From positions 505,316 through 569,315 of the forward strand of contig OZ246394.1 of assembly GCA_965230895.1 (NCBI GenBank): 64,000 nucleotides of DNA, given 5' to 3'. Shown piece after piece: positions 40,911 through 58,956 of the stretch. Made by a program: the position numbers and the translations under genes. This DNA comes from an uncultured Gammaproteobacteria bacterium. Its GTDB lineage: Bacteria; Patescibacteriota; Microgenomatia; Levybacterales; UBA12049. Under the pieces are notes generated by a model that did no database searches, was not told the DNA's origin, and was given only the letters and a program-made list of their open reading frames with translations. Position 1 is the first letter of the stretch. Each line of letters starts with the position of its first letter.

Positions 40911-41984
40911 TTATCTTCCAAACATTGATAAGAATAATCTAAGAAGCATTGCAAATAACGCCAACAAGAAACCGATAAAGCCCCCTTCTCCATTAATAGG
41001 AGGTAAACCACCATTGCCAGGATCACCAGGGTTTCCCGGGTTATTTGGATCGTCAGGACCACCAGGTTCTCCAGCTCCCGGAGTGGTTGAGATAGTTCCT
41101 CCGCCAGGATTTGGATTATTCGGATCGATAGTTCCAGAAAGACCAGGAGCAGGCGTACCACCACCATTTCCAGGACCATCACCACCTGGTACATCAGTTG
41201 GTGTAGGACGCTGAGTAAGAAATACCGTTGGCGCTAAAACACTAGTAGGTGTTGGTGTAACTGGGAAATTATCTGGCGCTTGTGTTGCGACCCCTGTCGG
41301 ACAGACGTTTCCAAGGCATTGAGGACTTGGAACCCCTGTTATACCAGGATTAGAACCATTTCCTAACATTGGAGTCAGAGAGTTATTAGGATTACCAGCG
41401 AATGCAATTGTCCAATAGGCTGACTGTCCTGAAGCATCGGTTTCAACTGCTACTGCAGCGAGTGTATATGAAGCATTTGTTAAGATAGCATTATCCGGTG
41501 GATCGATCTGCAAACCAGCGATGATTTCATCTGCGGCAGGAGCACCATTAATAATGATTTCATTGTAGTTATTGGTATTTCGAACTCCACAATCTCCAAA
41601 TCGAAGATCCATCGATCGACCTAACGAATCTATCTTCTGAACACTGCCCCGAGAAATCATGTCATGAGTCATCCAAGATGCTTCTTGATTTAAGCTTTGA
41701 TCCCATGTTAGCTGACCTAGGCCTTTTGCTGCTCGATATTGATTAATTCTATTGAAAAGATCTTGTTCGAGTGCAGATGTCTGGAGCTGGACAGAAGTTA
41801 TGCTGCAATCTCCTGCTGCACGCGATCGAATATTTTGAGACTGATTTGCCTGATAAACTGCAACGAACAGTGAGATAAGTAAAACTGTCATTGTGACCAG
41901 GAGATTTATATTTGGTCTTTTGAATACCGGCTGCTTTGAAGCCTTTTTAGGTGCGGGTTTCTTATTTGTATCTTTTTTTGCCAC
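40911..41984 (-). CDS. Secreted CAP(SCP/PR-1)-like domain protein with Pro/Gly-rich linker and C-terminal TM anchor
   Basis: N-terminal TM/signal, YRAAKGLGQLTWDQSLNQEASWMTHDM is CAP-like. PG-rich low-complexity tail. Confidence 0.45.
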   Translation of the reverse strand: MAKKDTNKKPAPKKASKQPVFKRPNINLLVTMTVLLISLFVAVYQANQSQNIRSRAAGDCSITSVQLQTSALEQDLFNRINQYRAAKGLGQLTWDQSLNQEASWMTHDMISRGSVQKIDSLGRSMDLRFGDCGVRNTNNYNEIIINGAPAADEIIAGLQIDPPDNAILTNASYTLAAVAVETDASGQSAYWTIAFAGNPNNSLTPMLGNGSNPGITGVPSPQCLGNVCPTGVATQAPDNFPVTPTPTSVLAPTVFLTQRPTPTDVPGGDGPGNGGGTPAPGLSGTIDPNNPNPGGGTISTTPGAGEPGGPDDPNNPGNPGDPGNGGLPPINGEGGFIGFLLALFAMLLRLFLSMFGR

Positions 41985-42060
41985 ACTCCATTATTGGCTC
42001 AGCATTGCAAAAAATGCAAGCACTAAATACGAAATGAGCTTGTAATGACAGCGTTAATAA

Positions 42061-43794
42061 CTACGGTGTTGCTGTCAAATTTTGAGGGAGTGAAAGAAGT
42101 TCAAAGTCATCTGCTCCAAATGCTCGCGCATCTTGAATTGAAAGAACACCATTCCATGAAACGCTTTTACCAGTAAGTACTTCTGCATACAATGTCGCAA
42201 CGCCTGATGTATCGACAACATACGCTCCATATGTCTGTAATGCTCGACCTATTACCTTACAAGCGTTATTTGAACCACATTTTGCATTCACATCCACAGA
42301 TGCTTTTAATCGGAGCCGCGCTCCTTCAGGAATGTTCGCTGAAGTATTTCGGTTTGAAGCACTGGCATTGTCGGAATGAGTAGCAATATTCTGTGTAATA
42401 CCGTCTGTACCAAGTCCCATTGCATATGCTTTTCCTCGAGTCCATGGATATGCCATAGCAAGAGCATGTTTGATTTCTCCATCTTTCATTTCCTGATATC
42501 GTATACTGCCAGCAACTGCAGATCCACCATATGCTCGAGCACTTCCTGACCATGCTGTTGTTTGATAGCCAAGCCCTGTAGTACTAAGCTTTGAACCAAG
42601 TCCTGCTGACCATGTGCCATTACTTGCTTTTCTCATATCCCAGAATTCATATATTGTGTTATTTGGAACATCCCAAATTGAAAGATGATGATCGCTACCG
42701 ACAGATGTTTTTGCTTGTGCAGGCATTGGCACATTCGTCAAACCTCCCCACCAACCGGTATTGTCACCGACGTTCACTCGTGGAGTCGTACTATCAGCAT
42801 AGTACAACGGAATCCCATAATCAGGATATGACGATGTTCCCTGGATATCAAATCCTGCACCGCGCTGATTGAATGAATACTTCAAACTTCCAACACTTGT
42901 ACTTGAGATCATTGTCGCAGATTGTGGGGCAACTGAACCAATAGCAGGGACATTCCATGCAGAAGTTGCGCTAAACAATTGGCATGGATACGTATTCGCA
43001 TTCATTGTATTCGCAGAAGGAATAATTCCAGTACAACCACTTGTTGGAGTTGGAGAAGCTGTAGGGGTAGGCGTTACAACACTGGTTGGTGTTGGAATAT
43101 CTGTAGGAGTAGGAGTCGCAGTTGGCGTTACGCTTGGAACGTCTGTTGGTGCTGGAGTCGGAGTTGCGGTAGGAACTTGCGTTGGTGTAGCAGTTGGAGG
43201 TACCACCGTAGGAGTCGGAGTTACACCATTGTCTAACACAAGACTGATATCATCAATTTGCATTCTATTACCAGATACAGCATTATTTTGGACAACGTAG
43301 ATTTCAAGTCCAGTTCTCCCTCGATCCATTACTGCAGAAACAGAAATTTGTTGCCATGTTGAGCTAAGAACAACTGCAGCACCCATTGTCGTCTTTTGAG
43401 AGGTTGAACCACCTGATTGTCGAAGAACGACTTGTGCTGTTTTCCCAGAAGCATTTGAAGTCCGAACCCATGCAGTTCCAACATATTTAGCACCAGCTGT
43501 TGGATTGGTAACAGTCGCAGGATTATCATCCATAGTATATGCAGTACCACTCGTCCGAGTAATTTCACATGATGCAGCACCAGAACGTGCAATTGAAGTA
43601 TTACGAGATAAAGAACCTTGCCAGCCAACCCAACTGGAAGTATTTGTATCACAGCCAGGATTTTTAACCAAGTTTGGCCCTGCAGCAGAAGATGTTATAG
43701 GGAAAAACACGGTTAGAAGAAGTGCAAAAATGCCTGTGAAGGCAAATTGGATATATCTTTTATTTTTTAGATTTTTACTCATTGAAAAACTCAC
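42061..43794 (-). CDS. Secreted protein with N-terminal carbohydrate-binding-like domain, Thr/Pro-rich linker and C-terminal domain of unknown function
   Basis: Signal/TM segment, CBM_4_9-like N-terminus, (TPTP)n linker. Confidence 0.45.
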   Translation of the reverse strand: MSFSMSKNLKNKRYIQFAFTGIFALLLTVFFPITSSAAGPNLVKNPGCDTNTSSWVGWQGSLSRNTSIARSGAASCEITRTSGTAYTMDDNPATVTNPTAGAKYVGTAWVRTSNASGKTAQVVLRQSGGSTSQKTTMGAAVVLSSTWQQISVSAVMDRGRTGLEIYVVQNNAVSGNRMQIDDISLVLDNGVTPTPTVVPPTATPTQVPTATPTPAPTDVPSVTPTATPTPTDIPTPTSVVTPTPTASPTPTSGCTGIIPSANTMNANTYPCQLFSATSAWNVPAIGSVAPQSATMISSTSVGSLKYSFNQRGAGFDIQGTSSYPDYGIPLYYADSTTPRVNVGDNTGWWGGLTNVPMPAQAKTSVGSDHHLSIWDVPNNTIYEFWDMRKASNGTWSAGLGSKLSTTGLGYQTTAWSGSARAYGGSAVAGSIRYQEMKDGEIKHALAMAYPWTRGKAYAMGLGTDGITQNIATHSDNASASNRNTSANIPEGARLRLKASVDVNAKCGSNNACKVIGRALQTYGAYVVDTSGVATLYAEVLTGKSVSWNGVLSIQDARAFGADDFELLSLPQNLTATP

Positions 43795-44084
43795 GCCTAA
43801 GACCTTATATCAAATACTATATATAGATGTCAATATAATAAATTGCATTGAGGCTGCAATGGAGAGATAACTGGGTGAGCCACATGGGTCTGGAACATAA
43901 CGTCGCCATAACTCACATTTGACCTATTGTATCAAATCCTCCAATTTTTATCATTATAACTGTCTCATGTCGAGGCGAAACAAGACAAATAAGACACTGT
44001 AAAAAAGCCGTCTCATTTTTTATAATGTGCAGAGTTACAAAAGTCAAATGATATATTTTGAACTATTTATAGTAACCTGCCTTC

Positions 44085-44669
44085 TTGTTCTGCAAAATGA
44101 CATCGGCAGCAAAAACATATATAACTTTTAATAAGAAGCGACTTGCACTTTTTGTCCGTACCTATGCTTTTTATGTCATCGTTTATTACCTGTGGAAGAA
44201 ATATAAGATTAAAGCAAATCTAAAACCAAAAGATCTCCGCAAAAGATATTCCAAACGAGCTGTTCCAGAAATATCAAGACTTGCTAGAATATTGAATCTC
44301 AACTACATAGAACTACGGGAAGCGATTGTGCTGAATAAAACAAAACGATTGGACCGAGAGTTTGCTGATGATAAACAAATAAAACTATATATTTCTGTTG
44401 AAGAAGAGATAATATCACTTGCTAAAGCAAAACAGCAGGAATCTGACTATACAGAACCTGATTATGAGGAAGAGTTCGGATTACTCACCATGGCAGTTGA
44501 AAGGGCTATTGGGAACGCTCTGGATGACGTAGACGATGATCTGGTATTCGAACAACAGTTTGGAGAGTTAAAAAGAAAATATCTCTATTTGTATTACAAA
44601 ACTGCTCATAAATACAAGCTGCCGACAATAAGGATTGTACCATTTGTTATGCGACTTATAATCTCTTAA
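44085..44669 (+). CDS. Hypothetical protein (left edge of the prophage-like island)
   Basis: ORF only. Confidence 0.35.
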   Translation: MFCKMTSAAKTYITFNKKRLALFVRTYAFYVIVYYLWKKYKIKANLKPKDLRKRYSKRAVPEISRLARILNLNYIELREAIVLNKTKRLDREFADDKQIKLYISVEEEIISLAKAKQQESDYTEPDYEEEFGLLTMAVERAIGNALDDVDDDLVFEQQFGELKRKYLYLYYKTAHKYKLPTIRIVPFVMRLIIS

Positions 44670-44704
44670 CAATTACCATCTCCGCTTAATTCTAGGAGGT
44701 ACTA

Positions 44705-45181
44705 TTAAAAAAAGTTATTCAAACCATTCTTGTCTTTAACTCTAATAAACTCAATACAATACCCATAGCTGGATGGAACCATTAATAAGCCATGTCTTAA
44801 TACTGGCTTCCGATTATCCCATTGAGACACAACAGTATTCTTACCAACCAGTCTTCCAGCGTGCTTAAGATCGCCAGAGAGATAGTAAAGGACAATGTCA
44901 CCGGGTATTCGTTTTTCATGAGAACTTAGCTTTTTGACAAATGTAAAATTTTCAATCGCCCTAAGAACTGATGCTTTACCTGCTCTTTCATTTCCGAAAG
45001 CATAACCAAAGCAATTTCCCATTCCATCAGGCTGAGGAGGTTCAAGAAATGCTATAAAGCGTCCGTATCGCTTGGGTAAAGTACTTTGATATTTTTTAGG
45101 ATCTTTGAAATCCGGATTGTCATACATCTTGTCTATCGCTGATATCGTTGTTGGTTGTGGATGTCTTTTATAAGTATTCAT
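44705..45181 (-). CDS. Hypothetical 158-aa protein, last gene of the CD-NTase operon. Possible Cys/His hydrolase.
   Basis: GNCFGYAF ... KHAG spacing is reminiscent of Cys-His catalytic dyads. 9 nt downstream of the 2TM gene. Confidence 0.4.
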   Translation of the reverse strand: MNTYKRHPQPTTISAIDKMYDNPDFKDPKKYQSTLPKRYGRFIAFLEPPQPDGMGNCFGYAFGNERAGKASVLRAIENFTFVKKLSSHEKRIPGDIVLYYLSGDLKHAGRLVGKNTVVSQWDNRKPVLRHGLLMVPSSYGYCIEFIRVKDKNGLNNFF

Positions 45182-45189
45182 AAATTAGT

Positions 45190-45777
45190 TTAGTAGCTTT
45201 TATCAGGTTTTTGAATGTTTTTAATTTTAAGCTCTTTTGGTAGGAATCTGTCAATTTCTTCATCAGACCATGTGAAATCTTCGTTTTGGACAACACCCTT
45301 TTCATTTAATCTTTTTTGTGCTTCTTCGTATTCTTCTCTTCCTGTTTGAGGGGCTAAGTCACAAAGTATTTGGTATTCTCTCAATAAATCGTCACGTTTA
45401 TTAATAATTTCTCTGTCAGAGATACTTTCATTGATAATATCTGTTATTAAAGAAGTATAAGCATTTCTCAGACCGAGATACTTTAGTGCTGAATTTTTAT
45501 AGAGAATGGTTTTATCTTCAAACTTAAAAGACAGTTGAAAAATTAAAAAAATAATTTCTATAACAGAAAGACTAATACCTAAATATCCAAAAATTGGATT
45601 AACAGTCGAAACTGAAAGGACCAAAGTTATTAATACGAGAGAAACCAATACTACGTTTCCTATCTTAACTTTAAAGGCTTTTTTATCCTGAAATTCGGCA
45701 GCAACCTCCTGTACTTTATGAGTAAAAACGGTATTCGCAAAATTCTGTCTTACAATTGATAAATTTTTGATGTCCAT
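45190..45777 (-). CDS. 2TM effector-like protein (SLATT-like architecture)
   Basis: 40-aa cytoplasmic head, two adjacent TM helices (VVLVSLVLITLVLSV / LGISLSVIEIIFLIFQL), about 110-aa helical tail. The ATG is 1 nt after the NTase stop (TAAtATG). Confidence 0.6.
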   Translation of the reverse strand: MDIKNLSIVRQNFANTVFTHKVQEVAAEFQDKKAFKVKIGNVVLVSLVLITLVLSVSTVNPIFGYLGISLSVIEIIFLIFQLSFKFEDKTILYKNSALKYLGLRNAYTSLITDIINESISDREIINKRDDLLREYQILCDLAPQTGREEYEEAQKRLNEKGVVQNEDFTWSDEEIDRFLPKELKIKNIQKPDKSY

Positions 45778-45778
45778 A

Positions 45779-47065
45779 TTATATGGTTCCGATTGGAACA
45801 AATACTCTAGAAAATGCAACGCAAACTCCGTCTTTTATAGCATAACACTCCACATAATGCTCACCCCAATATTTTGTACTCTCAATTTTCTCTTCTTTTC
45901 CCCTATCCGAAGTAATCTCTCCTCTAAGATCACCAGCATTTTGAGCTTCTTCTCCAAAATTTCTCACTTTCCATTTTATCGAATATGGATAAGGAACTGT
46001 ATTTTTAGTTATATGAAATGTTAAGCTTTTCTGCTTTCTCAATAACAGTTTATTAAGAATAATTTCCCCTAGAGATTTTCTTCTAAACCCATTTTGATCC
46101 ACATGTGCATCAATTTTAAAATCAAATCCTGGATTAAGACGAAATGGTTCCTCAAGAAATTCTTCTTTCTCTGACGGATATGATTCCTGAAGCTCTACTA
46201 AGGTCTGATCAAAAGATTTTTCTGATTTTTCTAGCGATGGAAAAGTATCACCGAATATTTTTTTCCATTCAGATACAGCATCTTCAAGTTTATCGTCTTC
46301 CTCAAGCTGCAATGCTTTTTCTGCTCGATTTTTAGCTGTTTCTATATGACTTTTTCTATTTACATTCTGGTTCACATTTATAAAATAAGCAAAAAATTGT
46401 GTGACAAGCGTAGAATAATCACTTTCTGCAGAATAAATAGTGAAGAAGCCTACAACAGCATCTTCTATTTCGTAAGATTTTATACTTATGGAACAGTTTT
46501 CTGTCCATTTCTTGACGATTCTTATCAAAGCTTTCGTTTTTCCTGTTTGGGCATCTGATTCTTTTATTTTCTTTATTTCTGATCTTGGATCCCATTCATC
46601 CCAAGCTCCTCCATTTGCTGTATTTGGGATTAAAAAAGTTCCCTCTACTGCTTCGTTCTCCCATGCAGGTAAAAGCTCAATGTTGTGTGTACCATCTGAA
46701 AACTTGATTAAAACTATCTTTCCCCAAGCTTTTATTATTTCTGTTGTTGTATATTTCTTAGAAAGGATATTTTTTATATCTTGCAAGAGTTGTGATTGCC
46801 CGTTGGATTCATTGTCATCATATTGTTTAAACTTATCTCCGGGCATTATAAATAGAACGTCAACATCTCTAGGAGGTCGAAGATGAGTATGTTTGCCATA
46901 TGATCCAATTAATAATTTTGTGCTACCATCATAATCTTTATTTGGATAATAGTGACTGTGAAGTTTTTTACAAACTCCTACATACTTAGATTTAGCATCT
47001 TTTCTCTGTGCAGAGGTAAGCAAGATGTTTTTATAAAATTTTTCAAAGCATCTTTGAATATTCAT
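45779..47065 (-). CDS. cGAS/DncV-like nucleotidyltransferase (CD-NTase / SMODS-like) with C-terminal extension
   Basis: Pol-beta NTase core LLIGSYGKHTHLRPPRDVDVLFIMP (GS...DhD) and downstream NIELLPAW (hDhhPA-like with Glu). Start overlaps the upstream HTH gene stop (TAATG). Confidence 0.65.
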   Translation of the reverse strand: MNIQRCFEKFYKNILLTSAQRKDAKSKYVGVCKKLHSHYYPNKDYDGSTKLLIGSYGKHTHLRPPRDVDVLFIMPGDKFKQYDDNESNGQSQLLQDIKNILSKKYTTTEIIKAWGKIVLIKFSDGTHNIELLPAWENEAVEGTFLIPNTANGGAWDEWDPRSEIKKIKESDAQTGKTKALIRIVKKWTENCSISIKSYEIEDAVVGFFTIYSAESDYSTLVTQFFAYFINVNQNVNRKSHIETAKNRAEKALQLEEDDKLEDAVSEWKKIFGDTFPSLEKSEKSFDQTLVELQESYPSEKEEFLEEPFRLNPGFDFKIDAHVDQNGFRRKSLGEIILNKLLLRKQKSLTFHITKNTVPYPYSIKWKVRNFGEEAQNAGDLRGEITSDRGKEEKIESTKYWGEHYVECYAIKDGVCVAFSRVFVPIGTI

Positions 47066-47262
47066 TATTTACTTTTTCTATTATAAGGACTTTGGTTTGT
47101 TGGCTTCAAAGAGATATTCAAACTTTGCGCTTTTGATTGTACAGCTCCAGGAGTTCTTCCTACTTTTAGACCAATCACTCTCGTTGGAGTATTTTGCTTT
47201 GCCAGCTGACCCAACTGCTTTTCTTGTGCTGGTGTCCATGCTTTACCTTTGTTATTTGTCAT
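47065..47262 (-). CDS. Small (65 aa) HTH DNA-binding protein
   Basis: WTPAQEKQLGQLAKQNTPTRVIGLKVGRTPGAVQSKAQSL is a helix-turn-helix-like segment. Translationally coupled to the NTase. Confidence 0.5.
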   Translation of the reverse strand: MTNNKGKAWTPAQEKQLGQLAKQNTPTRVIGLKVGRTPGAVQSKAQSLNISLKPTNQSPYNRKSK

Positions 47263-47269
47263 ATGTTAC

Positions 47270-47908
47270 TCACCCACTTTCTTGCCTAACGGCTTTTATT
47301 ACTTGTATTACTTTGCCATTTACGATGAATTCATCATGTTCACTTATATATATTGGCGCATACTTTTTATCTGATTCAGACAATAGGGCAATATTTCCAT
47401 CGACAGAACGATTATATTTCTTTATGTTTGAGCAACCATTAATAATAGAAAGGATGTAATCACCTTTGTTTGGAATTCGTTGATCGCTGTCTATGACAAC
47501 ATAGTCATTTTCTTCTATTGATTTATCATAAATATTAGCTTTATTCATTGAATCGCCCTTTGCGACCAAAGCAAAAATATTTCCTCTCTTCTTTAACAAA
47601 GACTGGGAAACAAGGAGATATTCTTCATCGACTCGACCTTCTGCAATAATTGTTGCAGGTCCACAGTTCGCAGCTCCTACAACAGGTATTTGTACGAAGT
47701 CTGGCTGCATTGATGCACTTTTATCAAGAAATAATTTTATATCCTCACGTGACTTTAGAGAAAGAAGTCCTTTTTTTTGAAGTTGATTAAGGTGGTGTTT
47801 AACAATTTGAGGTTTGTCTTCTCCAATACGTCTACCCAATGGTCGAATGCCAAGATTTAGCACATCTTCTGTCTTTGACAATTCGAGGATCTTTTTTTGT
47901 ATTGGATG
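47270..47908 (-). CDS. LexA/CI-like S24-peptidase repressor (second paralog). Likely start is MHPIQKK, though the ORF runs to 47968.
   Basis: N-terminal LexA-type wHTH, AANCG linker, GDSM Ser nucleophile and downstream Lys (NIKKY). Confidence 0.8.
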   Translation of the reverse strand, partial: HPIQKKILELSKTEDVLNLGIRPLGRRIGEDKPQIVKHHLNQLQKKGLLSLKSREDIKLFLDKSASMQPDFVQIPVVGAANCGPATIIAEGRVDEEYLLVSQSLLKKRGNIFALVAKGDSMNKANIYDKSIEENDYVVIDSDQRIPNKGDYILSIINGCSNIKKYNRSVDGNIALLSESDKKYAPIYISEHDEFIVNGKVIQVIKAVRQESG

Positions 47909-47940
47909 CATAATATATAATATACACGAGTTATAGCTGA

Positions 47941-47993
47941 CCGTCAAGTAATCATTTGACACTGCCATAGTAGTAATTATTCAACTTGACACC
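47941..47993. promoter_or_regulatory. Candidate operator. GTCAA/TTGAC half-sites: inverted pair 47943-47960 and direct TTGACAC repeats at 47956 and 47987.
   Basis: Repeated half-sites in the divergent intergenic region between the S24 repressor and the rightward phage-like operon. Confidence 0.4.
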
Positions 47994-48041
47994 AGCATTG
48001 TTAAGTGGTAATTTGAGATCGAATATACATCTTATAAATTT

Positions 48042-48785
48042 ATGAAAGAAGACTATTTTGCTAAAAAAGCAACACGCATCCGTCAAAGAATAAAAGTTCT
48101 TACCAATATGCCGATTTTCCAAGAAGAAATCAAGCGTTTACGAAAAAAGTGGAATATTCCTTTGAATGGACTAGAAACTGATCAAGATTTAGAAAACTGG
48201 AAAATACAACTAGAGGTTGCAACAGATGATTATGACGAAAGAGAGTGGCCAAAATGCTTGGATGAGATTAAAAAATTGAGACAAGCAGGCAAACATATTG
48301 AAATTGATGAGAAAAGAAAGGAATACCAGTCAAAAAGACCGCTGATAGAGTTTAATGATGACATATGGAGCGTTGTGAGGGAGTATAGACTCTCTCAACG
48401 GTGGAATTCAGGCATCAAACACTATTTGTTAACAAACAGTACTGAAAATTGGGGAATAGCAAATGGAGTATCAATAGTAACCACATGGGCAAATGGCATG
48501 AAATTACTTTCACTTGAGCTCGATGGAGAGACAACACTTATAGACATAAAGCATATGTGGCCGTGGGTAAAAAGAATGCAAAAAGGCTTACTTTCGAAAC
48601 AATTTGATAAATTTCAACCAATCAGGAACTTTGAAAGGGATAAAAGAACTTATGAGCTTGAACAAGACGGAAAAACTCTGGAAGAAATTGCTGAAGCTAT
48701 TAACGTAGAATTTGATAATGCTCTTGTTGAAGGAGAGGTTAAACAAATCATAAAAAGACATAAAAAGCGCCTCAACATTAATTAA
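48042..48785 (+). CDS. Hypothetical protein (first gene of rightward phage-like operon)
   Basis: ORF only. Confidence 0.4.
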   Translation: MKEDYFAKKATRIRQRIKVLTNMPIFQEEIKRLRKKWNIPLNGLETDQDLENWKIQLEVATDDYDEREWPKCLDEIKKLRQAGKHIEIDEKRKEYQSKRPLIEFNDDIWSVVREYRLSQRWNSGIKHYLLTNSTENWGIANGVSIVTTWANGMKLLSLELDGETTLIDIKHMWPWVKRMQKGLLSKQFDKFQPIRNFERDKRTYELEQDGKTLEEIAEAINVEFDNALVEGEVKQIIKRHKKRLNIN

Positions 48786-48819
48786 GCTTAATTGATGTTT
48801 ATACAAAAAGCCCAAGCAT

Positions 48820-50139
48820 GTGTATTATGAAAACATGCAAAACGGAAAACTCTCCAATATTAACGAGCAACTGAAGATCCATTATGTAGTACCTTCTGAA
48901 CTTCAAGCTTCTGAATATAATCCACGCAAGTGGGACGATACTGCCATAAAACATCTTCTTGAAAGTATAAAACGTTTCGGATTGGTTGATCCTATCATCG
49001 TCAATGGAGCAAAGCATCGATTCAATATTGTGATTGGAGGACATTTTAGGCTCAGGATTGCAAAAGATTTAGATTTTAAAACAGTACCCGTAGTGTACGT
49101 TAATATTCCTGATATTAAAAAGGAGCAAGAGTTAAACATTCGCCTCAACCGCAATACAGGAGAATGGGACTTAGAGCTATTGAAAGCGTTTGATATTGGC
49201 CTGCTTTTAGACGTTGGCTTTGATAATAGCGATCTCTCCAATATTTGGGACAATAATCTATCAATTGAAGATGATGAATTTGACATTGATAAAGCAATCG
49301 CAGATGTAAAAGAGCCAAAAACTAGGCTGGGTGACATTATTACTCTTGGTGAACACAGACTCATTTGTGGCGATAGTACAGACCCTGCTGTTGTTGCAAG
49401 GCTCATTGAGAATCATAAGATCAGCATGTTAAATTATGACCCTCCATATAACATAAATCTTAACTACAACAAAGGTGTCGGTGAAAAAGGAAACTATGGT
49501 AGTAAAAAAGTGAATGATAATAAGTCAGCTGATGACTACTGGACATTTCTCAAGAAAGTATTACAAAATGGACTCGCCTACGCATTACCAGATTGCCATG
49601 TCTTTTGCTTTTGCGATCAGTCATATATATGGATACTGCAAAAGCTTTATGCAGAGCTTGGAATAGGGACAAAACGTGTTTGCCTGTGGATCAAAAACAA
49701 TGCCAATATGACGCCACAGATTGCCTTTAATAAAGCATATGAACCTTGTGTATATGGCACAGTCGGTAATCCCTATTTATCCCCCATCCATAATCTCAAT
49801 GAGATACTTAACAAGGAAGTTGGGACGGGGAATCGTTTAACGGACGATATTATGGACATTTTTGACATCTGGCTTGCAAAACGTGTTGCAGGACAGAACT
49901 ACGAACACCCAACCCAGAAACCTCCTACATTATACGAAAAGGCAATTCGCCGCTGCTCAAAACCGGGTGATATTATCCTTGATCTCTTCGGCGGCTCAGG
50001 GAGTCAACTGGTAGCCGCTGAACAACTCAAACGCCGAGCTTTCTTATGCGAAATCGATCCTGTGTTTTGTGATGTCATTGTTGCTCGCTATCAGGAATTA
50101 ACAGGAAAGGAGGCTATTTATGCAGATTCAACCGAATGA
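48820..50139 (+). CDS. ParB-like nuclease domain fused to N6-adenine/N4-cytosine DNA methyltransferase
   Basis: N-terminal ParB/Srx-like (YNPRKWDD...GLVDPIIVN). DPPY motif IV (MLNYDPPYNI). FxGxG motif I (DLFGGSGSQ). Confidence 0.8.
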   Translation: MYYENMQNGKLSNINEQLKIHYVVPSELQASEYNPRKWDDTAIKHLLESIKRFGLVDPIIVNGAKHRFNIVIGGHFRLRIAKDLDFKTVPVVYVNIPDIKKEQELNIRLNRNTGEWDLELLKAFDIGLLLDVGFDNSDLSNIWDNNLSIEDDEFDIDKAIADVKEPKTRLGDIITLGEHRLICGDSTDPAVVARLIENHKISMLNYDPPYNINLNYNKGVGEKGNYGSKKVNDNKSADDYWTFLKKVLQNGLAYALPDCHVFCFCDQSYIWILQKLYAELGIGTKRVCLWIKNNANMTPQIAFNKAYEPCVYGTVGNPYLSPIHNLNEILNKEVGTGNRLTDDIMDIFDIWLAKRVAGQNYEHPTQKPPTLYEKAIRRCSKPGDIILDLFGGSGSQLVAAEQLKRRAFLCEIDPVFCDVIVARYQELTGKEAIYADSTE

Positions 50140-50872
50140 CATTTTTGTATTAGGTTCCCATTACTTAGCTTGTGGAGATGCGTTAGATCTAGAAGTTGTC
50201 AAAAGGCTTATTGGAGATCGAAGCATCTCCCTCATCCTGACTGATATGCCTTACGGGGTTGGCTATGTCGAAAATAAGGGTGATTTCAATCAGCTCAGCA
50301 AGTCAAAAGTAATTGCCAATGATCATGAACAGAGTGAGTCTGACTACAAGAAGTTTACACAAGTATGGCTAGAAATAGTAAAGCCTTATCTTGCTGAGAA
50401 AAACAGTTATTATCTTTTCAACTCCGACAAAATGATTTTTGCGATGAGAGAAGGTCTAAAAGACGCTGGATTTAAGTTTTCCCAGCTACTTGTTTGGATT
50501 AAGAATCATGCCGTTCTGGGACGGCTAAATTACCTACCGCAACATGAATTGATTGCCTATGGTTGGTTTGGCAAACATATATTTATGAAATCACAGGATA
50601 AAAGTGTACTGTTTTGCCCTAAACCAAATAAAAGCCCTCTTCATCCCACAATGAAACCTTTGAGCTTGATTCGGAATCTCATTCTCAACAGTTCTAGAAC
50701 TGAGGAATGGGTGTATGACCCATTTGGAGGCAGTGGTACAACTCTTATCGCATGTGAACAGACAAAACGAAAATGCTTAATGATTGAACTTGATCCTGAG
50801 TATTGCGAGGTCATTATTAAACGCTGGGAAAAAGTAACGAGACAAAAAGCTAGAAAATTGGAAAGGAGATAG
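50120..50872 (+). CDS. DNA methyltransferase (N6_N4 class), second
   Basis: DMPY variant of motif IV. VYDPFGGSGTTLIA motif I. Confidence 0.75.
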   Translation: MQIQPNDIFVLGSHYLACGDALDLEVVKRLIGDRSISLILTDMPYGVGYVENKGDFNQLSKSKVIANDHEQSESDYKKFTQVWLEIVKPYLAEKNSYYLFNSDKMIFAMREGLKDAGFKFSQLLVWIKNHAVLGRLNYLPQHELIAYGWFGKHIFMKSQDKSVLFCPKPNKSPLHPTMKPLSLIRNLILNSSRTEEWVYDPFGGSGTTLIACEQTKRKCLMIELDPEYCEVIIKRWEKVTRQKARKLERR

Positions 50873-50873
50873 T

Positions 50874-51317
50874 ATGGATAATAAAGCATCAAAAACGATT
50901 CAAGACAGACAACAAAAAGAAAAAACACTTCTGATAGATCTGCTTAAAAAGACACCGATTATCCAAGTAGTGTGCGAGAAAGTTGGCATTGCACGAGCTA
51001 CATATTACCGATGGAAGCAAGAGGATGAAGAATTTGCACGACTTGCGGATGAAGCTCTTGTTGAAGGTAGTGGTTTGGTAAATGATATAGCTGAATCACA
51101 GTTTATGTCAGCAATTAAAAATCAAAACCTCACTGCGATCATTTTTTGGCTGAAACACCATCACCCAACATATGCTACCAAAGTTGAAGTAACCGCTCGG
51201 CTGAAAGCGGATAACGAAGTGTTAACTCCAGAGCAAGAAGCTCTGGTTACAAAAGCTTTGAAACTTGCCGCACTTCTTCCAAATAACACAATGGAAACGG
51301 AGGCCAAGCAGTCGTGA
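50874..51317 (+). CDS. Phage terminase small subunit-like protein
   Basis: HTH VCEKVGIARATYYRWKQEDEEF typical of TerS. Start overlaps the upstream stop and the downstream terL start. Confidence 0.65.
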   Translation: MDNKASKTIQDRQQKEKTLLIDLLKKTPIIQVVCEKVGIARATYYRWKQEDEEFARLADEALVEGSGLVNDIAESQFMSAIKNQNLTAIIFWLKHHHPTYATKVEVTARLKADNEVLTPEQEALVTKALKLAALLPNNTMETEAKQS

Positions 51318-52801
51318 TAATACAGCAGTTAACTGATAATGAACTCGAACAAATTAAGAAAAAGCGCTCGGTTCGTCGGATGCTTGCGAAAAATAGTCAC
51401 TATTGGTTCTTCTCTATATACCTTGGTCATTACATAAAATATCCTTTCGCACCCTTTCATCAAGAAATGTTTCAGATGACGGAAGATTTGGGAAATCGTT
51501 TAACCGTACTGATTGCTTTCAGAGGATCAGGAAAGTCTACTATGATGACGCTCTCATATGTTATCTGGGCAATACTTGGTATCCAACAAAAGAAATTTGT
51601 CCTTATATTAAGCCAAACACAAGCACAAGCAAAGCTGCATATGGCAAATATTAAGCATGAACTTGAAAATAACGAACTATTAAAAGCAGATATTGGCCCA
51701 TTTGAAGAACTGAGTGATGAATGGGGCTCGACTACACTTGTGCTTTCAAAGTTTGGCGCACGAATTACCATCGCATCAACAGAACAAAGTATTCGCGGGA
51801 TGCGACATGGAGAACACCGACCTGATCTTGTCATTTGTGATGACGTAGAAGATTTGAATAGTGTCAAAACACGAGAAGGCCGAGATAAAACGTTTCAATG
51901 GCTGACGGGTGAAGTTCTCCCAATCGGAGATCAGAACACGAAAATCTTGATCATTGGTAACTTACTCCATGAAGATAGTCTCTTAATGCGACTTCGAGAA
52001 GGGATAGAAAAACAGAGACTGGAAGGAAAGTTCTTTGCGTATCCGCTTCTTAATATTGAAGATAAAATTGCTTGGCCTGATAAGTTTAAAACGATGCTGG
52101 ATATTGAAAGAGAAAAAGCCAAGATAGGTACGGATTCTGCATGGCACCGAGAATATCTTCTGAGAATTATTTCAGATGCAGATCGAGTTATTCATCCTGA
52201 ATGGATTCAGTACTATGATCGTATCCCATCAGAAACGGATAACGATTTTGAATACACAGCAACAGGTGTTGATCTTGCGATATCGCAGAAAGCGTCAGCA
52301 GATTATACAGCCATGGTAACTGCAAGTGTATTTGCTCAAAATGAAAAACTTCGTGTTTATATATTGCCAAATCCAGTCAATAAACGTATGGGGTTCCCAG
52401 AAACAGTGGAAGTTTCAGTCAACCTTGCAACTGCACTTCAAAGCAGATTATTTATTGAGGATGTCGGCTATCAAAGGTCCCTTATTCAATATTTAGAAAA
52501 TGGACGAAATGTGTCAGCGGAAGGAGTTAAACCAGGGGGACAAGATAAAAGAACAAGGCTTGCATTAGTAACGCACCTTATTCAACAAGGAAAGGTGCTT
52601 TTCCCCCACCATGGAGCAGAAGAACTCATTCAACAGCTAGTGGGCTTTGGCATTGAAAAACATGATGACTTAGCAGATGCATTCGCCATACTGTTACTGA
52701 AAATCATTGAAGAAGATAATAATCCTGCACCAATGGCTTATTTCTTCGACATGGGAGATTTTTATACTCAGGGAAGACATCCACTTTCAGGAGACTGGTA
52801 A
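51314..52801 (+). CDS. Phage terminase large subunit
   Basis: Walker A FRGSGKST, Walker B LVICDDVED, C-terminal RNaseH-like nuclease acidic residues. Confidence 0.8.
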   Translation: MIIQQLTDNELEQIKKKRSVRRMLAKNSHYWFFSIYLGHYIKYPFAPFHQEMFQMTEDLGNRLTVLIAFRGSGKSTMMTLSYVIWAILGIQQKKFVLILSQTQAQAKLHMANIKHELENNELLKADIGPFEELSDEWGSTTLVLSKFGARITIASTEQSIRGMRHGEHRPDLVICDDVEDLNSVKTREGRDKTFQWLTGEVLPIGDQNTKILIIGNLLHEDSLLMRLREGIEKQRLEGKFFAYPLLNIEDKIAWPDKFKTMLDIEREKAKIGTDSAWHREYLLRIISDADRVIHPEWIQYYDRIPSETDNDFEYTATGVDLAISQKASADYTAMVTASVFAQNEKLRVYILPNPVNKRMGFPETVEVSVNLATALQSRLFIEDVGYQRSLIQYLENGRNVSAEGVKPGGQDKRTRLALVTHLIQQGKVLFPHHGAEELIQQLVGFGIEKHDDLADAFAILLLKIIEEDNNPAPMAYFFDMGDFYTQGRHPLSGDW

Positions 52802-52803
52802 AA

Positions 52804-53016
52804 TTAGAAAAGGTCGGCCATTTTAACTTTAAGGACTTTAGCAATCTTTTCTAATACTTCTATAGAGGCAGAATACCTCCCTTGCTCGATATATCCCATA
52901 TATGCTCTACTAATTCCAATTTTTTCGGCTACTTCTTCTTGCGTTAATCCCGTCGTTTTTCTTAGCTTTTGTATCCTTTTGCCAAGAGTTTTCGGTAACT
53001 TTGCATTCTTTCTCAT
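52804..53016 (-). CDS. XRE-family HTH transcriptional regulator
   Basis: LRKTTGLTQEEVAEKIGISRAYMGYIEQGR is a classic Cro/C1 HTH. Confidence 0.85.
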   Translation of the reverse strand: MRKNAKLPKTLGKRIQKLRKTTGLTQEEVAEKIGISRAYMGYIEQGRYSASIEVLEKIAKVLKVKMADLF

Positions 53017-53145
53017 GCCTCAATTATCAGTCTATAACTGCAACATATCCACTTAGTAAGACTTAGCATTTAGCCTCAAATACTACTTGCTTTTACTCTA
53101 AGTTTCGCTTATCATTGTGGTAGAGGTTCGAAAGGAGGTGATTGT

Positions 53146-53577
53146 ATGAAGAAATTTCTTAAATGGGGCGGAATAGCGATTATTATTATCATTTTTATTG
53201 CTGCTTTTAGTGGTGGTGACAAATCTAGTACAAGTACGCAATCGTCTGGAACAGCTCAGGAAAAACAACAAACACCCACAGAAATAACAGCACAACAACT
53301 TGCTGATGATTTTGATAGTAATCAAGTTGCAGCGGAAGCGAAATGGAAAGATAAGCTTGTACAATTTAGTGCTACCATTTCAAATATAACGGATACAGGA
53401 CTTTCATTCTCAAATGTTGCATCCAAGCAATTTTCGACAGCACAGATAAGTTGTCGTGTGAATGACAAGCAACAGCTTTTATCACTCAAAAATGGTGAAA
53501 CAGTTACAGTCAAAGGAATTATTGGAAGCCAAACAATTGGTGTTATTGATATGAGTGACTGTGAAGTTGTGAAATAA
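53146..53577 (+). CDS. Small secreted or membrane-anchored protein, hypothetical
   Basis: AAGGAGGTG RBS, N-terminal TM/signal, Ser/Thr/Gln-rich linker. Confidence 0.45.
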   Translation: MKKFLKWGGIAIIIIIFIAAFSGGDKSSTSTQSSGTAQEKQQTPTEITAQQLADDFDSNQVAAEAKWKDKLVQFSATISNITDTGLSFSNVASKQFSTAQISCRVNDKQQLLSLKNGETVTVKGIIGSQTIGVIDMSDCEVVK

Positions 53578-53997: not shown

Positions 53998-54789
53998 ATG
54001 ATTTTAAAATGGGCAGTTGCTGTCACTGTACTTACAATTATACTATTTGGCGGTTTTATGATAACTCAAATATCCAATACTAATTTAGATACGAAGCAAA
54101 ATATTTCAACGAAGAAAAAAGATGCTTTAGATTCTCTTATCATTTCACCACAATCACCTACCGATAAAGTAATGGTAAATAGTGCAACGTTATCTAAAAA
54201 AGGTTATATCGTTCTTCGAGAGATAGATGGAGAAAAGTTAAGTCAAGTAATAGAAATTAGCAAACCTTTAGATAAAGGTACACATGAAAATATATCAATA
54301 CCTGTAGGAAATGTCGATATTGTAAATAAAGAGCTTATTGTCATGGTATACGAAGACTATGCAAATGACGGTGTCTTTAACGATTTTGATCGACCTTCTC
54401 TCAATGAAGACGGTACGATGATAGCGAATTATATTAAAACTGGAAAATCAATTGCTTCCACAATTACAGAAGGTGACGGTTCAGAAATGATGGGACATAG
54501 CATGGCAGGTATGCAAAGTATGGTGAAAGTGAAATATACAGATAAAGGATTCATTCCAGAAAAGATTGAAGTTACAAAAGGTAGCATGGTTGAATTTGTA
54601 AACGAAAGTAATGCCAATATGTGGGTGGCATCATCACAACATCCTTCACATACAGATTTACCAACGTTTGACCAATTCAAACCAACAAAAAAAGGAAGTA
54701 TTTATCGATACGTTTTTGACAAAAAAGGCAAATGGATGTATCACGATCATATTAATGCAAGTTTAGGTGGAATAGTAACAGTTAATTAA
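53998..54789 (+). CDS. Membrane-anchored protein with C-terminal cupredoxin-like fold lacking the Cys ligand
   Basis: C-terminal EKIEVTKGSMVEFVNES...KGSIYRYVFDKKGKWMYHDHINASLGGIVTV is plastocyanin-like with His/His/Met but no Cys. Confidence 0.5.
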   Translation: MILKWAVAVTVLTIILFGGFMITQISNTNLDTKQNISTKKKDALDSLIISPQSPTDKVMVNSATLSKKGYIVLREIDGEKLSQVIEISKPLDKGTHENISIPVGNVDIVNKELIVMVYEDYANDGVFNDFDRPSLNEDGTMIANYIKTGKSIASTITEGDGSEMMGHSMAGMQSMVKVKYTDKGFIPEKIEVTKGSMVEFVNESNANMWVASSQHPSHTDLPTFDQFKPTKKGSIYRYVFDKKGKWMYHDHINASLGGIVTVN

Positions 54790-54808
54790 AAGTAAAGGAG
54801 GTGAATAT

Positions 54809-55189: not shown

Positions 55190-55244
55190 TCTTTTTAGGA
55201 GAGGTGCATATCTTGCGCTTCTTCCAAGGAGATAACACAAAATT

Positions 55245-55604: not shown

Positions 55605-55605
55605 T

Positions 55606-58903: not shown

Positions 58904-58956
58904 ACAAGTATTTAGAATGATAAATAACTTTCTGGCGTTATTGTAAAACTTATAAC

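Follow-up and report, generated by a model that had tools for sequence, protein, structure and literature searches.

Organisation of the locus

The window analysed here is a 64-kb stretch of DNA. Between 44705 and 47968 it carries five closely packed genes on the minus strand, as a first-pass annotation had described, and a reading of the sequence recovered all five open reading frames. They are an S24 repressor gene (47270..47911), a gene for a 65-aa protein (47065..47262) that is conserved behind S24, a gene for a 428-aa CD-NTase (SMODS) cyclase with a C-terminal AGS-C domain (45779..47065), a gene for a 195-aa SLATT_4 two-TM CBASS effector (45190..45777), and orf158, which encodes a predicted DUF7689/NlpC-P60-like protein of 158 aa (44705..45181). 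A divergent control region (47912..48041) containing a promoter and a palindrome lies in front of S24. The S24 reading frame is open back to 47968, the start first assigned to it, and we found that the most likely start is ATG 47911 (213 aa, MHPIQKK...), which is conserved in S24 homologues and used in independent gene calls.

The gaps along the operon are 7, -1, 1 and 8 nt. The TAATG junction between the 65-aa gene and the cyclase gene and the TAA-t-ATG junction between the cyclase and 2TM genes read as first reported, while the S24 stop lies 7 nt (not 8) from the ATG of the 65-aa gene and the 2TM stop 8 nt (not 9) from orf158. Because the cyclase/2TM junction reads TAA-t-ATG, the 2TM start was placed at ATG 45777 and not at the upstream TTG 45819. 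No terminator-like sites were found within 44000-48200. Since the gaps are small, this region has no terminator-like site, and S24 is followed within 7 nt by the next gene in 12 of 19 comparable operons, the five genes are probably co-transcribed from the S24 promoter. A search for the five-gene operon as a conserved unit returned only identical copies of the window's lineage.

The cyclase and effector form a Type I CBASS core

The motifs on which a CD-NTase assignment had been proposed, GS-x11-DVD (G54 S55 ... D67 V68 D69) and IELLPA (residues 129-134), are present in the 428-aa protein, and G54, S55, D67, D69 and E130 do not vary among 27 homologues. The protein matches SMODS (4.8e-28) and PADLOC Cyclase PDLC00796 (4e-109, residues 1-426 on the 432-position model). 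When its family profile was compared with the PDB, the best matches were 6p8u/6p82 (nucleotidyltransferase, ~2e-19), with further matches to CD-NTase 9sa4, CdnC, CdnD, AMP-AMP-GMP synthases and cGAS. A non-cGAS-like fold was considered for this protein, and the SMODS, PADLOC and PDB profile matches speak against it. The NTase core occupies residues ~1-275 (nt ~46241-47065, minus strand). The C-terminal 250 aa had been called uncharacterised, but they correspond to a known domain, the Ig-like AGS-C (residues 299-425, nt 45791-46171, minus strand; Pfam AGS_C 8.8e-40).

The 2TM partner is of the SLATT type, as had been suggested (Pfam SLATT_4 2.8e-30; NCBIfam SLATT_4 104 bits, cut-off 55; PADLOC Effector 2TM 9.9e-39), and hydropathy gives two adjacent hydrophobic helices at residues ~34-66 and 59-86. 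We found that the cyclase-effector pair is widely conserved elsewhere. Judged from sequence, the core is a standard two-gene Type I CBASS, and CBASS activity of the pair is presumed. AGS-C is found on about 40% of Type I CBASS cyclases, and phage defence by operons with a SLATT effector has been demonstrated (10.1101/2023.05.21.541620; PMC11381338).

The 65-aa protein and orf158

The 65-aa protein matched PHROG 323 ('transcriptional regulator, D5-like'; 3.3e-9) and nothing in Pfam, PADLOC or PDB. We tentatively describe it as a putative Myb/SANT-like HTH protein with a basic C-terminal tail. In L128, L131 and L140, homologues 62-77% identical to it come immediately behind S24, and the cargo differs from one locus to the next; the protein may have a role in regulation.

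Direct family searches with orf158 (Pfam, PADLOC, NCBIfam) gave no match, and one close homologue was found among 5.8 billion proteins. Remote relatives numbered 72; DUF7689 was matched by 40 of 48 and NLPC_P60 by 11 of 48. Its profile matched Spr/MepS in the PDB (6e-4) with the Cys and His aligned, and Foldseek with the AF2 model (pLDDT 89.7) returned weak top matches, mostly NlpC/P60 (E ~1e-2). We predict that orf158 is a DUF7689, NlpC-P60-like papain-fold Cys-His hydrolase. Judged by eye, its N-terminus is not signal-peptide-like. No other S24 or CBASS locus that was examined has the gene, which appears to be co-transcribed, lineage-specific passenger cargo rather than a conserved part of the system.

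The S24 protein resembles a self-cleaving repressor and has a conserved promoter palindrome

An S24/LexA-like protein had been named as the head of the operon, and this proved correct. The protein matched Pfam Peptidase_S24 (1.9e-15), PHROG 4 (transcriptional repressor; 2.5e-18) and UmuD'/LexA in the PDB (8.5e-6 to 1e-3), and it scored 73.5 bits against NCBIfam lexA, under the cut-off of 110.95. Its N-terminus gave a sub-threshold match to Pfam LexA_DNA_bind (E 0.016), and a winged HTH is predicted there. The predicted cleavage site is Cys83-Gly84 and the predicted catalytic dyad is Ser121 and Lys164. In alignments of 14 and 20 sequences the Ser and Lys were invariant and the Cys-Gly nearly so. 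Together these features suggest a LexA-family self-cleaving repressor.

The S24 promoter on the minus strand consists of a -35 TTGACG (47947-47942), a 17-nt spacer and a -10 TATATT (47924-47919). The ATG at 47911 follows the -10 after 7 nt, so the transcript should be leaderless or near-leaderless. A palindrome, GTCAA-N8-TTGAC, lies at 47943-47960, and one of its arms is the -35. The same layout (IR, -35 TTGACr, 17-18 nt, TATAnT, 6-8 nt, ATG) was found in all 8 of the closest S24 homologues (identity >=67%), where the palindrome is GTCAA-N8-10-TTGAC and overlaps the consensus -35. It occurs once in the 64-kb window, at the S24 promoter. In 1.83 Mb of fetched loci 22 matches were found, of which 12 are S24 promoter sites; the background rate is about one match per 80 kb. 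A related second 17-mer, TCAAAT-N4-ACTTAAC (48000-48016), is found close to the region of the divergent rightward promoter. We propose that an S24 dimer binds GTCAA-N8-TTGAC, and its effect is probably repression rather than activation, with the sign read from operator geometry alone. A palindrome centred near -40 could also serve a class-II or lambda-PRM-type activator.

The S24 module heads diverse defence operons

In 8 distinct lineages S24 lies directly 5' of a cyclase gene and on its strand. Loci with this adjacency include L004, L005-7, L016, L018, L021, L022 and L047; the loci share descent, so that their counts overstate independent events. The effectors in these loci are of three kinds: SLATT_4, a second SLATT type and patatin. 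This adjacency and the gaps of at most 7 nt in 12 of 19 operons indicate that the arrangement is not due to chance.

In related Patescibacteria loci, the window's S24 lineage or a second, more LexA-like lineage stands a few nucleotides before interchangeable cargo: CBASS, Thoeris-like TIR sets, Shedu, OLD/Gabija-like ATPases and unknowns. S24 heads Shedu SduA in L128, ThsB_TIR-SLATT-ThsB_TIR in L129, L132 and L138, ThsB_TIR-ThsA_Macro-ThsB_TIR-NUDIX in L130 and L139, two ThsB_TIR plus 8xMP in L084, and OLD/AriA/GajA-like ATPases in L101. The S24 proteins leading Thoeris-like, Shedu and unknown operons are 67-77% identical to that of the window, and those leading OLD-type ATPases ~40%. S24 relatives without cargo were found in L066-68 and L142, and no S24 adjoins about 12 of the 22 close CBASS relatives that could be evaluated.

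The first-pass observation is confirmed as a whole, while its interpretation is supported in part. The reading as a CBASS variant with its own S24 control does not hold: the same repressor heads Thoeris-like, Shedu and unknown operons, and more distant relatives of it head OLD-type ATPases, which makes it a regulator of general use that has CBASS among its cargoes. DNA-damage control gains support, at the level of sequence, because the cleavage site and the Ser/Lys pair are kept, the linkage recurs in many lineages and the S24 promoter carries a conserved operator.

A proposed damage-responsive immune operon

We consider it rather probable that 44705-47968 is a portable, autorepressed immune operon that is derepressed by RecA-stimulated self-cleavage of S24. 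Its leader would be a two-gene regulator, the S24 repressor and the conserved 65-aa putative HTH protein. An S24 dimer bound to GTCAA-N8-TTGAC, over the -35 of the near-consensus promoter, would hold the whole operon low under autoregulation, with a leaderless mRNA for all five genes starting at this promoter. Cleavage at Cys83-Gly84 would be stimulated by DNA damage or by intermediates of phage replication (RecA-ssDNA filaments), and the operon would be derepressed. From what is known of the families, phage infection would lead the CD-NTase, probably via AGS-C, to make a cyclic (oligo)nucleotide; this would switch on the SLATT_4 two-TM effector, which would permeabilise the membrane and abort infection. 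On this reading damage would induce the operon; RecA dependence of cleavage is presumed, as is RecA in the host, and RecA was not found within the 64-kb window. That the S24 module also stands in front of other defence systems in ultra-small relatives suggests an undescribed switch by which DNA damage controls bacterial immunity. In E. coli, a preprint reports that defence-system expression is negatively correlated with recA transcription, so SOS induction is not a general rule.

The neighbouring mobile element and other explanations

Divergent from the CBASS operon runs the backbone of an element (48042..53577, plus strand). It encodes a 247-aa unknown protein (48042-48785), a ParB_N+N6_N4 methylase (48820-50139), a second methylase (50120-50872), the small (50874-51317) and large (51314-52801) terminase subunits and an OB-fold tRNA_anti-like/Sie-like protein (53146-53577), all on the plus strand, and an XRE HTH protein on the minus strand (52804-53016). 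No portal, capsid, tail or recombinase genes were found in the 64-kb window, nor att-like flanking repeats around the element. The same backbone occurs in ~50 loci, ending with a large serine recombinase. What had been taken for a prophage remnant belongs to a family of compact terminase-bearing integrative elements without virion genes.

S24 might instead be a CI-type master repressor of this element, with CBASS as a 'moron' in the element's immunity operon, comparable to rexAB following cI in phage lambda. CBASS would then be on while the element is quiescent and shield the host from other phages, and repressor cleavage would bring no induction and maybe shut-off. Such a role would fit the divergence of the S24 operon from ParB-methylase/TerS/TerL in the window and in L004, L016, L018, L021, L022, L047, L084, L101, L114, L117, L128, L132 and L140, the second operator-like 17-mer near the rightward promoter region, and the PHROG matches, which are phage repressors. 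The leaderless mRNA and the operator near -40 also resemble lambda PRM, which CI activates and from which a leaderless cI mRNA is made. However, the same S24, promoter, operator and defence cargo occur with no terminase element in view, behind a T4SS/M23 cluster, in L129, L130, L138 and L139, and the copies of S24-TIR-SLATT beside the terminase element (L132) and behind T4SS/M23 (L129, L138) are 78-88% identical. Where enough upstream sequence is available, most TerL-anchored copies of the element have other cargo and no recognisable S24 at that position, so S24 is not a backbone gene. In addition, the near-consensus -35 and -10 should need no activator, and an element without virion genes is not a lambda-like prophage. 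We regard a master-repressor role as unlikely.

Less likely still is that an internal promoter drives CBASS and that the place of CBASS behind S24 is a cargo hotspot with no regulatory meaning. A promoter-like TTGAAG-18-TATAAT (47109-47080) does occur within the 65-aa gene, a short way before the start of the cyclase gene, but such sites are not enriched (13 found against 16 expected in shuffled sequence), and in most operons neighbouring genes are spaced by -4 to 7 nt, too tightly for a separate promoter between them. Varied cargo at the position beside ParB-methylase, and the lack of an adjacent S24 in about half of the close CBASS relatives, would suit a hotspot; against this, S24 is always first and on the strand of its cargo, with L009 the exception, and the S24-plus-cargo unit moves between contexts together.

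The window holds a better candidate for the host LexA in a second S24 gene at 21862-22431, within a LexA-polymerase region at 20.2-22.5 kb. It has an Ala-Gly site, a Y-family (TLS) polymerase gene on its 3' side and, between its -35 and -10, the only GAAC-N4-GTTC box in the 64-kb window. It is very improbable that the CBASS-linked S24 is itself the ordinary LexA, with CBASS inserted into the lexA operon: its close homologues are annotated 'repressor LexA' at source and those of L129, L130, L138 and L139 occupy a syntenic chromosomal position, but it is 29% identical to the second S24, falls short of the NCBIfam lexA cut-off and has a different palindrome, present in the window only at its own promoter.

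Comparison with known systems

The core does not differ from Type I CBASS systems that pair CD-NTase-AGS-C with SLATT, such as EcCdnF04-SLATT6 and the lactococcal plasmid NTase/AGS-C with SLATT PF18186; leaving the CD-NTase clade aside, the two genes and their domain families are the same, and the host here, to judge by the taxonomy of relatives, is a Patescibacteria-type organism.

The damage-responsive autorepressor that we favour shares with LexA and UmuD the S24 Ser-Lys self-cleaving fold, an N-terminal DNA-binding domain and a palindrome at its own promoter. UmuD is cleaved at Cys24-Gly25, also a Cys-Gly site, and dinF is co-transcribed behind lexA in the lexA-dinF operon, much as the defence genes would be behind S24. 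Unlike LexA, the CBASS-linked S24 lies below the NCBIfam lexA cut-off, has the operator GTCAA-N8-10-TTGAC rather than GAAC-N4-GTTC, and appears to be local to one operon rather than global, with a separate bona fide LexA in the same window.

Lambda has a cI-rexA-rexB immunity operon with a leaderless cI mRNA in a divergent arrangement. Here too, as in prophage repressor-linked defence, an S24 repressor is followed by an abortive-infection system on one transcript, with a leaderless repressor mRNA and divergence from the element's other operon. In contrast to lambda, the window's element has no virion genes, S24 plus cargo is also found outside it, and the near-consensus promoter suggests repression rather than CI-type activation.

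SetR of the SXT/R391 ICEs is a repressor inactivated after DNA damage. ImmR/ImmA of ICEBs1 is another mobile-element repressor of this kind (10.1101/2022.04.27.489752). Like these, S24 would be a repressor that is carried on a mobile element and responds to RecA or DNA damage, but they govern excision and transfer genes and not a co-transcribed defence operon.

After DNA damage, CapW, CapH/CapP and CapK/CapS raise the expression of the immune operons beside which they are encoded (PMC9122588, 10.1101/2022.04.27.489752, PMC13373217). Their repressors lose activity through ssDNA binding, proteolysis or phosphorylation (PMC9122588, PMC11662680, 10.1101/2022.04.27.489752, PMC13373217). S24 is likewise encoded beside diverse, interchangeable immune operons. 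It has no sequence relationship to these regulators, and Pfam, PADLOC and NCBIfam showed no WYL, M78 metallopeptidase plus XRE pair, or kinase. Instead, S24 would be sensor and repressor in one, a LexA-type self-cleaving protein that presumably responds to RecA filaments. Its gene opens the operon rather than standing upstream as a separate regulator gene, and the 65-aa partner accompanies it.

The operon and its CBASS core

We found that the operon consists of five minus-strand ORFs: the S24 repressor (ORF 47270-47968), a 65-aa protein (47065-47262), the 428-aa cyclase (45779-47065), the 2TM effector (ORF 45190-45819) and orf158 (44705-45181). The first-pass annotation had described five same-strand genes with coupled junctions, and these are present. 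Read from the sequence, the 65-aa gene meets the cyclase gene at TAATG, a 1-nt overlap, and the cyclase gene meets the 2TM gene at TAA-t-ATG, both as described. Only two gaps had been miscounted by one: the S24 stop precedes the next ATG by 7 nt rather than 8, and orf158 starts 8 nt rather than 9 past the 2TM stop. The TAA-t-ATG junction places the start of the 2TM gene at ATG 45777. For the S24 gene the most probable start is ATG 47911 (MHPIQKK...), the one chosen in independent gene calling on identical contigs and conserved in homologues. No terminator-like sites were found within 44000-48200, and an Rfam scan returned two tRNAs only, leaving the operon without an RNA element. The operon is flanked by orf194 (44085-44669, plus strand), which was found only in the window lineage and has no Pfam or PHROG hit, and by a gene for a 247-aa protein.

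The cyclase matched Pfam SMODS over residues 1-169 (4.8e-28) and the PADLOC Cyclase model end to end (4e-109). A profile of 27 homologues matched CD-NTases in the PDB over residues 2-274, the best being 6p8u/6p82 (~2e-19), followed by 9sa4, AMP-AMP-GMP synthases, CdnD, CdnC and cGAS. The catalytic residues G54, S55, D67, D69 and E130 (GS...DxD...[D/E] pattern) are invariant in the homologues. The SMODS and PDB matches uphold the first reading of this protein as a CD-NTase, and no non-cGAS-like fold emerged. The C-terminal region, which had been called uncharacterised, is the known AGS-C Ig-like domain (Pfam AGS_C, residues 299-425, 8.8e-40), which ~40% of Type I CBASS cyclases are reported to carry (10.1101/2023.05.21.541620). 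Against NCBIfam CBASS_cyclase_b the protein scored 103 bits, below the equivalog cut-off of 200, and it is therefore not that particular equivalog.

The effector matched Pfam SLATT_4 (2.8e-30) and PADLOC Effector 2TM (9.9e-39) and has two adjacent hydrophobic helices, which bears out the earlier call of a SLATT-like 2TM partner; by sequence it had no match in the PDB. Cap2/Cap3 (type II), HORMA/TRIP13 (type III) and QueC/TGT/OGG (type IV) were absent among the five operon proteins and the flanking ORFs. The genes are thus those of a Type I CBASS, a CD-NTase cyclase with an adjacent effector and no type II-IV ancillary genes. Since a lactococcal plasmid is on record with a Type I CBASS of NTase/AGS-C plus SLATT (PF18186) (PMC11381338), this is an already known architecture. 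By its sequence the CBASS core is ordinary, and the interesting part of the locus is the regulatory head.

The last gene, orf158, gave no direct family match and no Pfam hit of its own. Among 5.8 billion proteins it has one close homologue, whose contig breaks off 44 nt upstream and gives no informative context. An exhaustive search gave 72 remote relatives; 48 were scanned, with DUF7689 in 40 and NLPC_P60 in 11. Across these 48, His107 and His130 do not vary and Cys57 hardly does, and the family profile matched Spr/MepS (6e-4) with the conserved Cys and His aligned. A single-sequence AlphaFold model was unusable (pLDDT 33); the alignment-based model reached pLDDT 89.7, and its top Foldseek matches were mostly NlpC/P60 enzymes, though weak (E ~1e-2, TM 0.3-0.4). 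We rejected orf158 as a CBASS component because it has a single close homologue and is absent from all other S24 or CBASS loci examined, and we treat it as a lineage-specific passenger.

The S24 repressor leads interchangeable defence operons

Linkage of S24 to the cyclase was followed in a cyclase-anchored sample of 58 loci (24-62% identity, mostly Patescibacteria MAGs), together with the contexts of matches at 100%, 71% and 62% identity. In eight lineages (window, L004, L005-7, L016, L018, L021, L022, L047) S24 lies directly upstream of the cyclase and shares its strand; in L009 the two are divergent. It was missing from ~12 evaluable close cyclase relatives and from all distant non-Patescibacteria loci. 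The effector behind the cyclase varies and is SLATT_4, a second SLATT type (PADLOC 2e-21 and 2e-15) or a patatin. One relative, L005-L007 (1544-5069), is a five-gene cassette of a LexA-like S24, an 88-aa protein also present in L016, cyclase, SLATT_4 and a 153-aa protein. It lies between ordinary metabolic genes (3-dmu-9_3-mt, GH63, BipA), and no genes of the element were seen there. The Gammaproteobacteria label of its MAGs may reflect a binning error.

At 70% identity or more the homologues of the window S24 form ~45 clusters, versus 4 for the cyclase. Against viral contigs the window S24 gave no loci as a single query and six as a profile, two of them new and informative; metagenome contigs gave four loci only.

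Every close S24 relative that we looked up has a different cargo a few nucleotides downstream. Behind an S24 74% identical to that of the window, L128 carries proteins of 69, 103 and 50 aa and then Shedu SduA (SduA_C; PADLOC 8e-17). L129, L138 and L132 (72-76%) carry ThsB_TIR - SLATT_3/1 - ThsB_TIR, L132 ending inside the module, and L130 and L139 (67-69%) carry ThsB_TIR - ThsA_Macro - ThsB_TIR - NUDIX. In L131 (1605-6674; 70%) proteins of 66, 114, 803, 543 and 235 aa follow, with no assigned family, and in L140/141 (L140 6859-10363; 59%) proteins of 69, 100, 168 and 529 aa, then DUF5677. More distant S24 proteins precede two OLD/AriA/GajA-like ATPase(-TOPRIM) proteins (L101, 41%) or a 310-aa protein without assigned family and then DUF4145 (L114, 1-1416; 38%), and those of L066-68 and L142 (45-48%) have no cargo. 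For the larger cargo proteins tested from L131, L140 and L114, PADLOC gave no hits and Pfam none above threshold. The leaders of these defence operons fall into two S24 subfamilies, the window type and a more LexA-like type, the latter found in L005, L016, L021, L047 and L084; in L084 it precedes two ThsB_TIR proteins and an 8xMP membrane protein. The gap from S24 to the next gene is at most 7 nt in 12 of 19 operons.

Since the same S24 stands ahead of different cargos, it is not a CBASS adaptation but the leader of interchangeable defence operons. The first-pass annotation had seen control by a LexA-family repressor as a feature of a CBASS variant. The unusual regulatory head is real; its tie to CBASS did not hold, since the same repressor also leads Shedu and Thoeris-like operons, and a more distant relative leads OLD/AriA/GajA-like ATPases.

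In L129, L130, L138 and L139 (~5300-11900, locus coordinates) the S24 leader sits in a slot of conserved synteny that comes downstream of T4SS-like genes (TrbC/T4SS pilin, TraC-like, VirB4-like ATPase, M23 peptidase). The slot holds the alternative Thoeris-like cargos TIR-SLATT-TIR or TIR-Macro-TIR-NUDIX; a 77-aa ORF and a PLDc_2 gene border its other end.

The 65-aa protein likewise recurs with other cargos. In L128, L131 and L140 the gene next to S24 encodes a homologue at 62-77% identity, the cargo differing from one locus to the next, and S24 and the 65-aa protein therefore form a conserved two-gene leader. The sole annotation of the 65-aa protein was PHROG 323 "transcriptional regulator, D5-like" (3e-9). 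Neither the single sequence nor a profile matched Pfam or the PDB, Myb/SANT being sub-threshold at E ~1.

The repressor and its putative operator

The window S24 matched Pfam Peptidase_S24 (1.9e-15). It scored 73.5 bits against NCBIfam lexA (TIGR00498; cut-off 110.95), and its N-terminus matched LexA_DNA_bind below threshold (E 0.016, 15.4 bits versus a cut-off of 23.7); some homologues carry a precomputed PF01726 hit. The dyad Ser121 (GDSM) and Lys164 is invariant in our two S24 alignments (14 and 20 sequences), and Cys83-Gly84 (VGAANCGPA) is invariant in the larger and nearly invariant in the smaller. With E. coli LexA as the ruler sequence, the Cys-Gly pair aligns with the LexA Ala84-Gly85 scissile bond. 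UmuD is likewise cleaved at a Cys-Gly site. With the conserved dyad and the Cys-Gly pair, the window S24 looks competent for self-cleavage.

Upstream of the gene, a palindrome GTCAA-N8-TTGAC at 47943-47960 overlaps the -35 (TTGACG) of the S24 promoter, which continues with a 17-nt spacer, TATATT, 7 nt and ATG. All eight homologues with at least 67% S24 identity share the layout of an inverted repeat with a 9-10 nt spacer, TTGACr, 17-18 nt, TATAnT, 6-8 nt and ATG, and the layout is the same in both genomic contexts, regardless of cargo. The palindrome GTCAA-N8-10-TTGAC occurs once in the 64-kb window and 22 times in 1.83 Mb of fetched loci, 12 of the 22 being S24 promoter sites. This conserved layout, and the concentration of the palindrome at S24 promoters, indicates that S24 is autoregulated from a putative operator and that its transcript is probably leaderless. 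A 17-mer, TCAAAT-N4-ACTTRAC, has two copies in the window and is only suggestive as an operator because the pattern was derived from those two copies; the cross-locus palindrome is the stronger evidence for the predicted operator. A palindrome (GTCAAGTAATCATTGAC) nearly identical to the putative window operator lies at 7829-7845 of L104, a terminase-element locus without a recognised S24 nearby; it may be a relic, or a regulator not yet recognised may act there.

The near-consensus promoter, with its -35 itself forming half of the predicted operator, argues for repression. Chief among the rival readings is a lambda-like arrangement, with the cargo expressed in the repressed state. The predicted operator is centred near -40 and could serve a lambda-PRM-type activator, so the sign of regulation is one that we infer; with the promoter as it stands, we regard the lambda-like arrangement as unlikely. 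Repression by S24 is the reading that we carry forward. S24 would autorepress the operon, and RecA-stimulated self-cleavage would lift the repression, a mechanism that the conserved anatomy supports and that we hold to be, on balance, probable.

A compact terminase element beside the operon

Divergent from the operon, at 48042-53577 on the plus strand, lie the 247-aa ORF (48042-48785), a ParB_N-methylase, a second methylase, TerS and TerL (PHROG 38, 7e-79). The 247-aa protein has homologues in the same position beside the ParB-methylase in L105 and L110 and no Pfam or PHROG hit. Past TerL come an XRE-type HTH on the opposite strand, an OB-fold tRNA_anti-like/Sie-like protein, and then copper and redox genes. 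The HTH (70 aa, 52804-53016, minus strand; HTH_3 9e-16) is convergent with the TerL end and sits in the same place in L001, L128 and L140/141.

The surroundings had been called a prophage remnant, a description that we withdraw: apart from the methylases, TerS, TerL, the XRE HTH and the OB-fold protein, the window held no portal, capsid, tail or recombinase genes, and no convincing att-like direct repeats flank the element. In a TerL-anchored sample of 58 viral-contig loci, ~50 showed a compact unit. It is made up of a ParB-methylase, often paired with another methylase, then TerS and TerL, variable cargo in which proteins of ~1000 aa are frequent, and a large serine recombinase; the window copy lacks the recombinase. 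Portal- or capsid-sized genes never follow TerL in these ~50 loci; in genuine phage-like contigs with TerL relatives at 32-35% identity, they come next. A second cargo slot, upstream of the element methylase, has varied contents, of which an S24-led defence operon is one kind. Members of the family were seen in Patescibacteria-type contigs (window 48042-53577; L069-L120, L128, L132, L140). The element could be satellite-like or an otherwise undescribed mobile element; we found no precedent for it in Patescibacteria in the literature searched, coverage of which was incomplete.

The S24-TIR-SLATT module is 78-88% identical between the terminase element (L132) and the T4SS/M23 context (L129, L138), which places the repressor in the cargo module and not in the element backbone. 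A prophage CI/rexAB-like reading was downgraded, since the same S24-plus-cargo module is found outside the terminase element.

The copper/redox cluster (53998-63405) marks the mobile-element end. It comprises DUF7282/cupredoxin, DUF305, cupredoxin, an HXXEE protein, a DsbA-like thioredoxin, DsbD_2-cupredoxin, a P-type heavy-metal ATPase with an HMA domain (55956-58178) and a BlaI-like regulator with a BlaR1/M56 peptidase (58957-60346). At 40911-43794 (minus strand), where G+C is 0.42-0.45 versus ~0.35 around, are two large secreted-looking proteins (357 and 577 aa) with Pro/Thr-rich linkers; in the identical L001 calls they matched a CAP domain and, weakly, CBM_4_9.

A separate, likely host LexA in the window

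A second S24 gene, LexA-type with an Ala-Gly cleavage site, lies at 21862-22431 (minus strand), and its product shares 29% identity with the CBASS-linked S24. The promoter of this second gene is TTGACA-gt-GAACACTTGTTC-actg-TATAGT. In many phyla the canonical SOS box is GAAC-N4-GTTC, and the sole copy of that box in the window, at 22475-22486, falls between this -35 and -10. Behind the gene are an 86-aa ORF (21414-21674, minus) and a Y-family DNA polymerase (20186-21472, minus; PDB Pol IV 1.6e-33). A 95-aa ORF beside the polymerase (19856-20143, minus) looks GIY-YIG-like by eye (YIYILTN...LYIGV).

The segment 20186-22500 (minus) is likely the host LexA/SOS cassette, and its presence suggests a working SOS-type cleavage pathway in the host. 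We rejected the CBASS-linked S24 as the host LexA: the second S24 gene has the GAAC-N4-GTTC box and the Y-family polymerase, and the CBASS-linked protein scores below the TIGR00498 cut-off with a putative operator that differs from GAAC-N4-GTTC. A dedicated paralogue, the CBASS-linked S24 has a predicted operator of its own.

Implications and comparison with known systems

The regulatory head, S24 plus the 65-aa protein, is on present sequence evidence a portable, autoregulated LexA-type leader for interchangeable Patescibacteria defence operons. How toxic abortive-infection systems stay silent yet ready is an active question, and the locus offers a simple testable switch, with a defined putative operator, a cleavage site and a non-cleavable mutant. 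To our knowledge Patescibacteria are almost unstudied experimentally, and the locus gives a first view of their defence regulation. The leader also gives a means of searching the uncharacterised genes behind it for new defence systems. By association with it, the cargos of L131 (114/803/543/235 aa), L140 (100/168/529 aa plus DUF5677) and L114 (310 aa plus DUF4145) are candidate defence systems, and they would be new ones if this holds.

A lambda-type prophage immunity region comes with virion, lysis and replication modules; the window element is without them, and ~50 related elements are without portal or capsid genes. Three unrelated damage-responsive modules are known by immune operons: CapW, CapH/CapP and CapK/CapS are DNA-damage-responsive regulators beside diverse immune operons (PMC9122588, 10.1101/2022.04.27.489752, PMC13373217). 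Their likeness to the S24 leader is functional only. Neither S24 nor the 65-aa protein had Pfam, PADLOC or NCBIfam hits to WYL-WCX, to the pair of XRE HTH and M78 metallopeptidase or to the kinase and repressor pair, and the literature searched, with incomplete coverage, held no precedent for a LexA/S24 regulator of CBASS, Thoeris, Shedu or defence operons. The window locus points to a fourth solution, in which a LexA-type self-cleaving repressor, the oldest damage sensor, is the operon's first gene and moves with the cargo. We tentatively propose, as a serious possibility, that S24 and the 65-aa protein represent a fourth, undescribed class of portable immune-operon switch, in which RecA/LexA-type self-cleavage would drive interchangeable Patescibacteria defence cargo (CBASS, Thoeris-like, Shedu, OLD-type).
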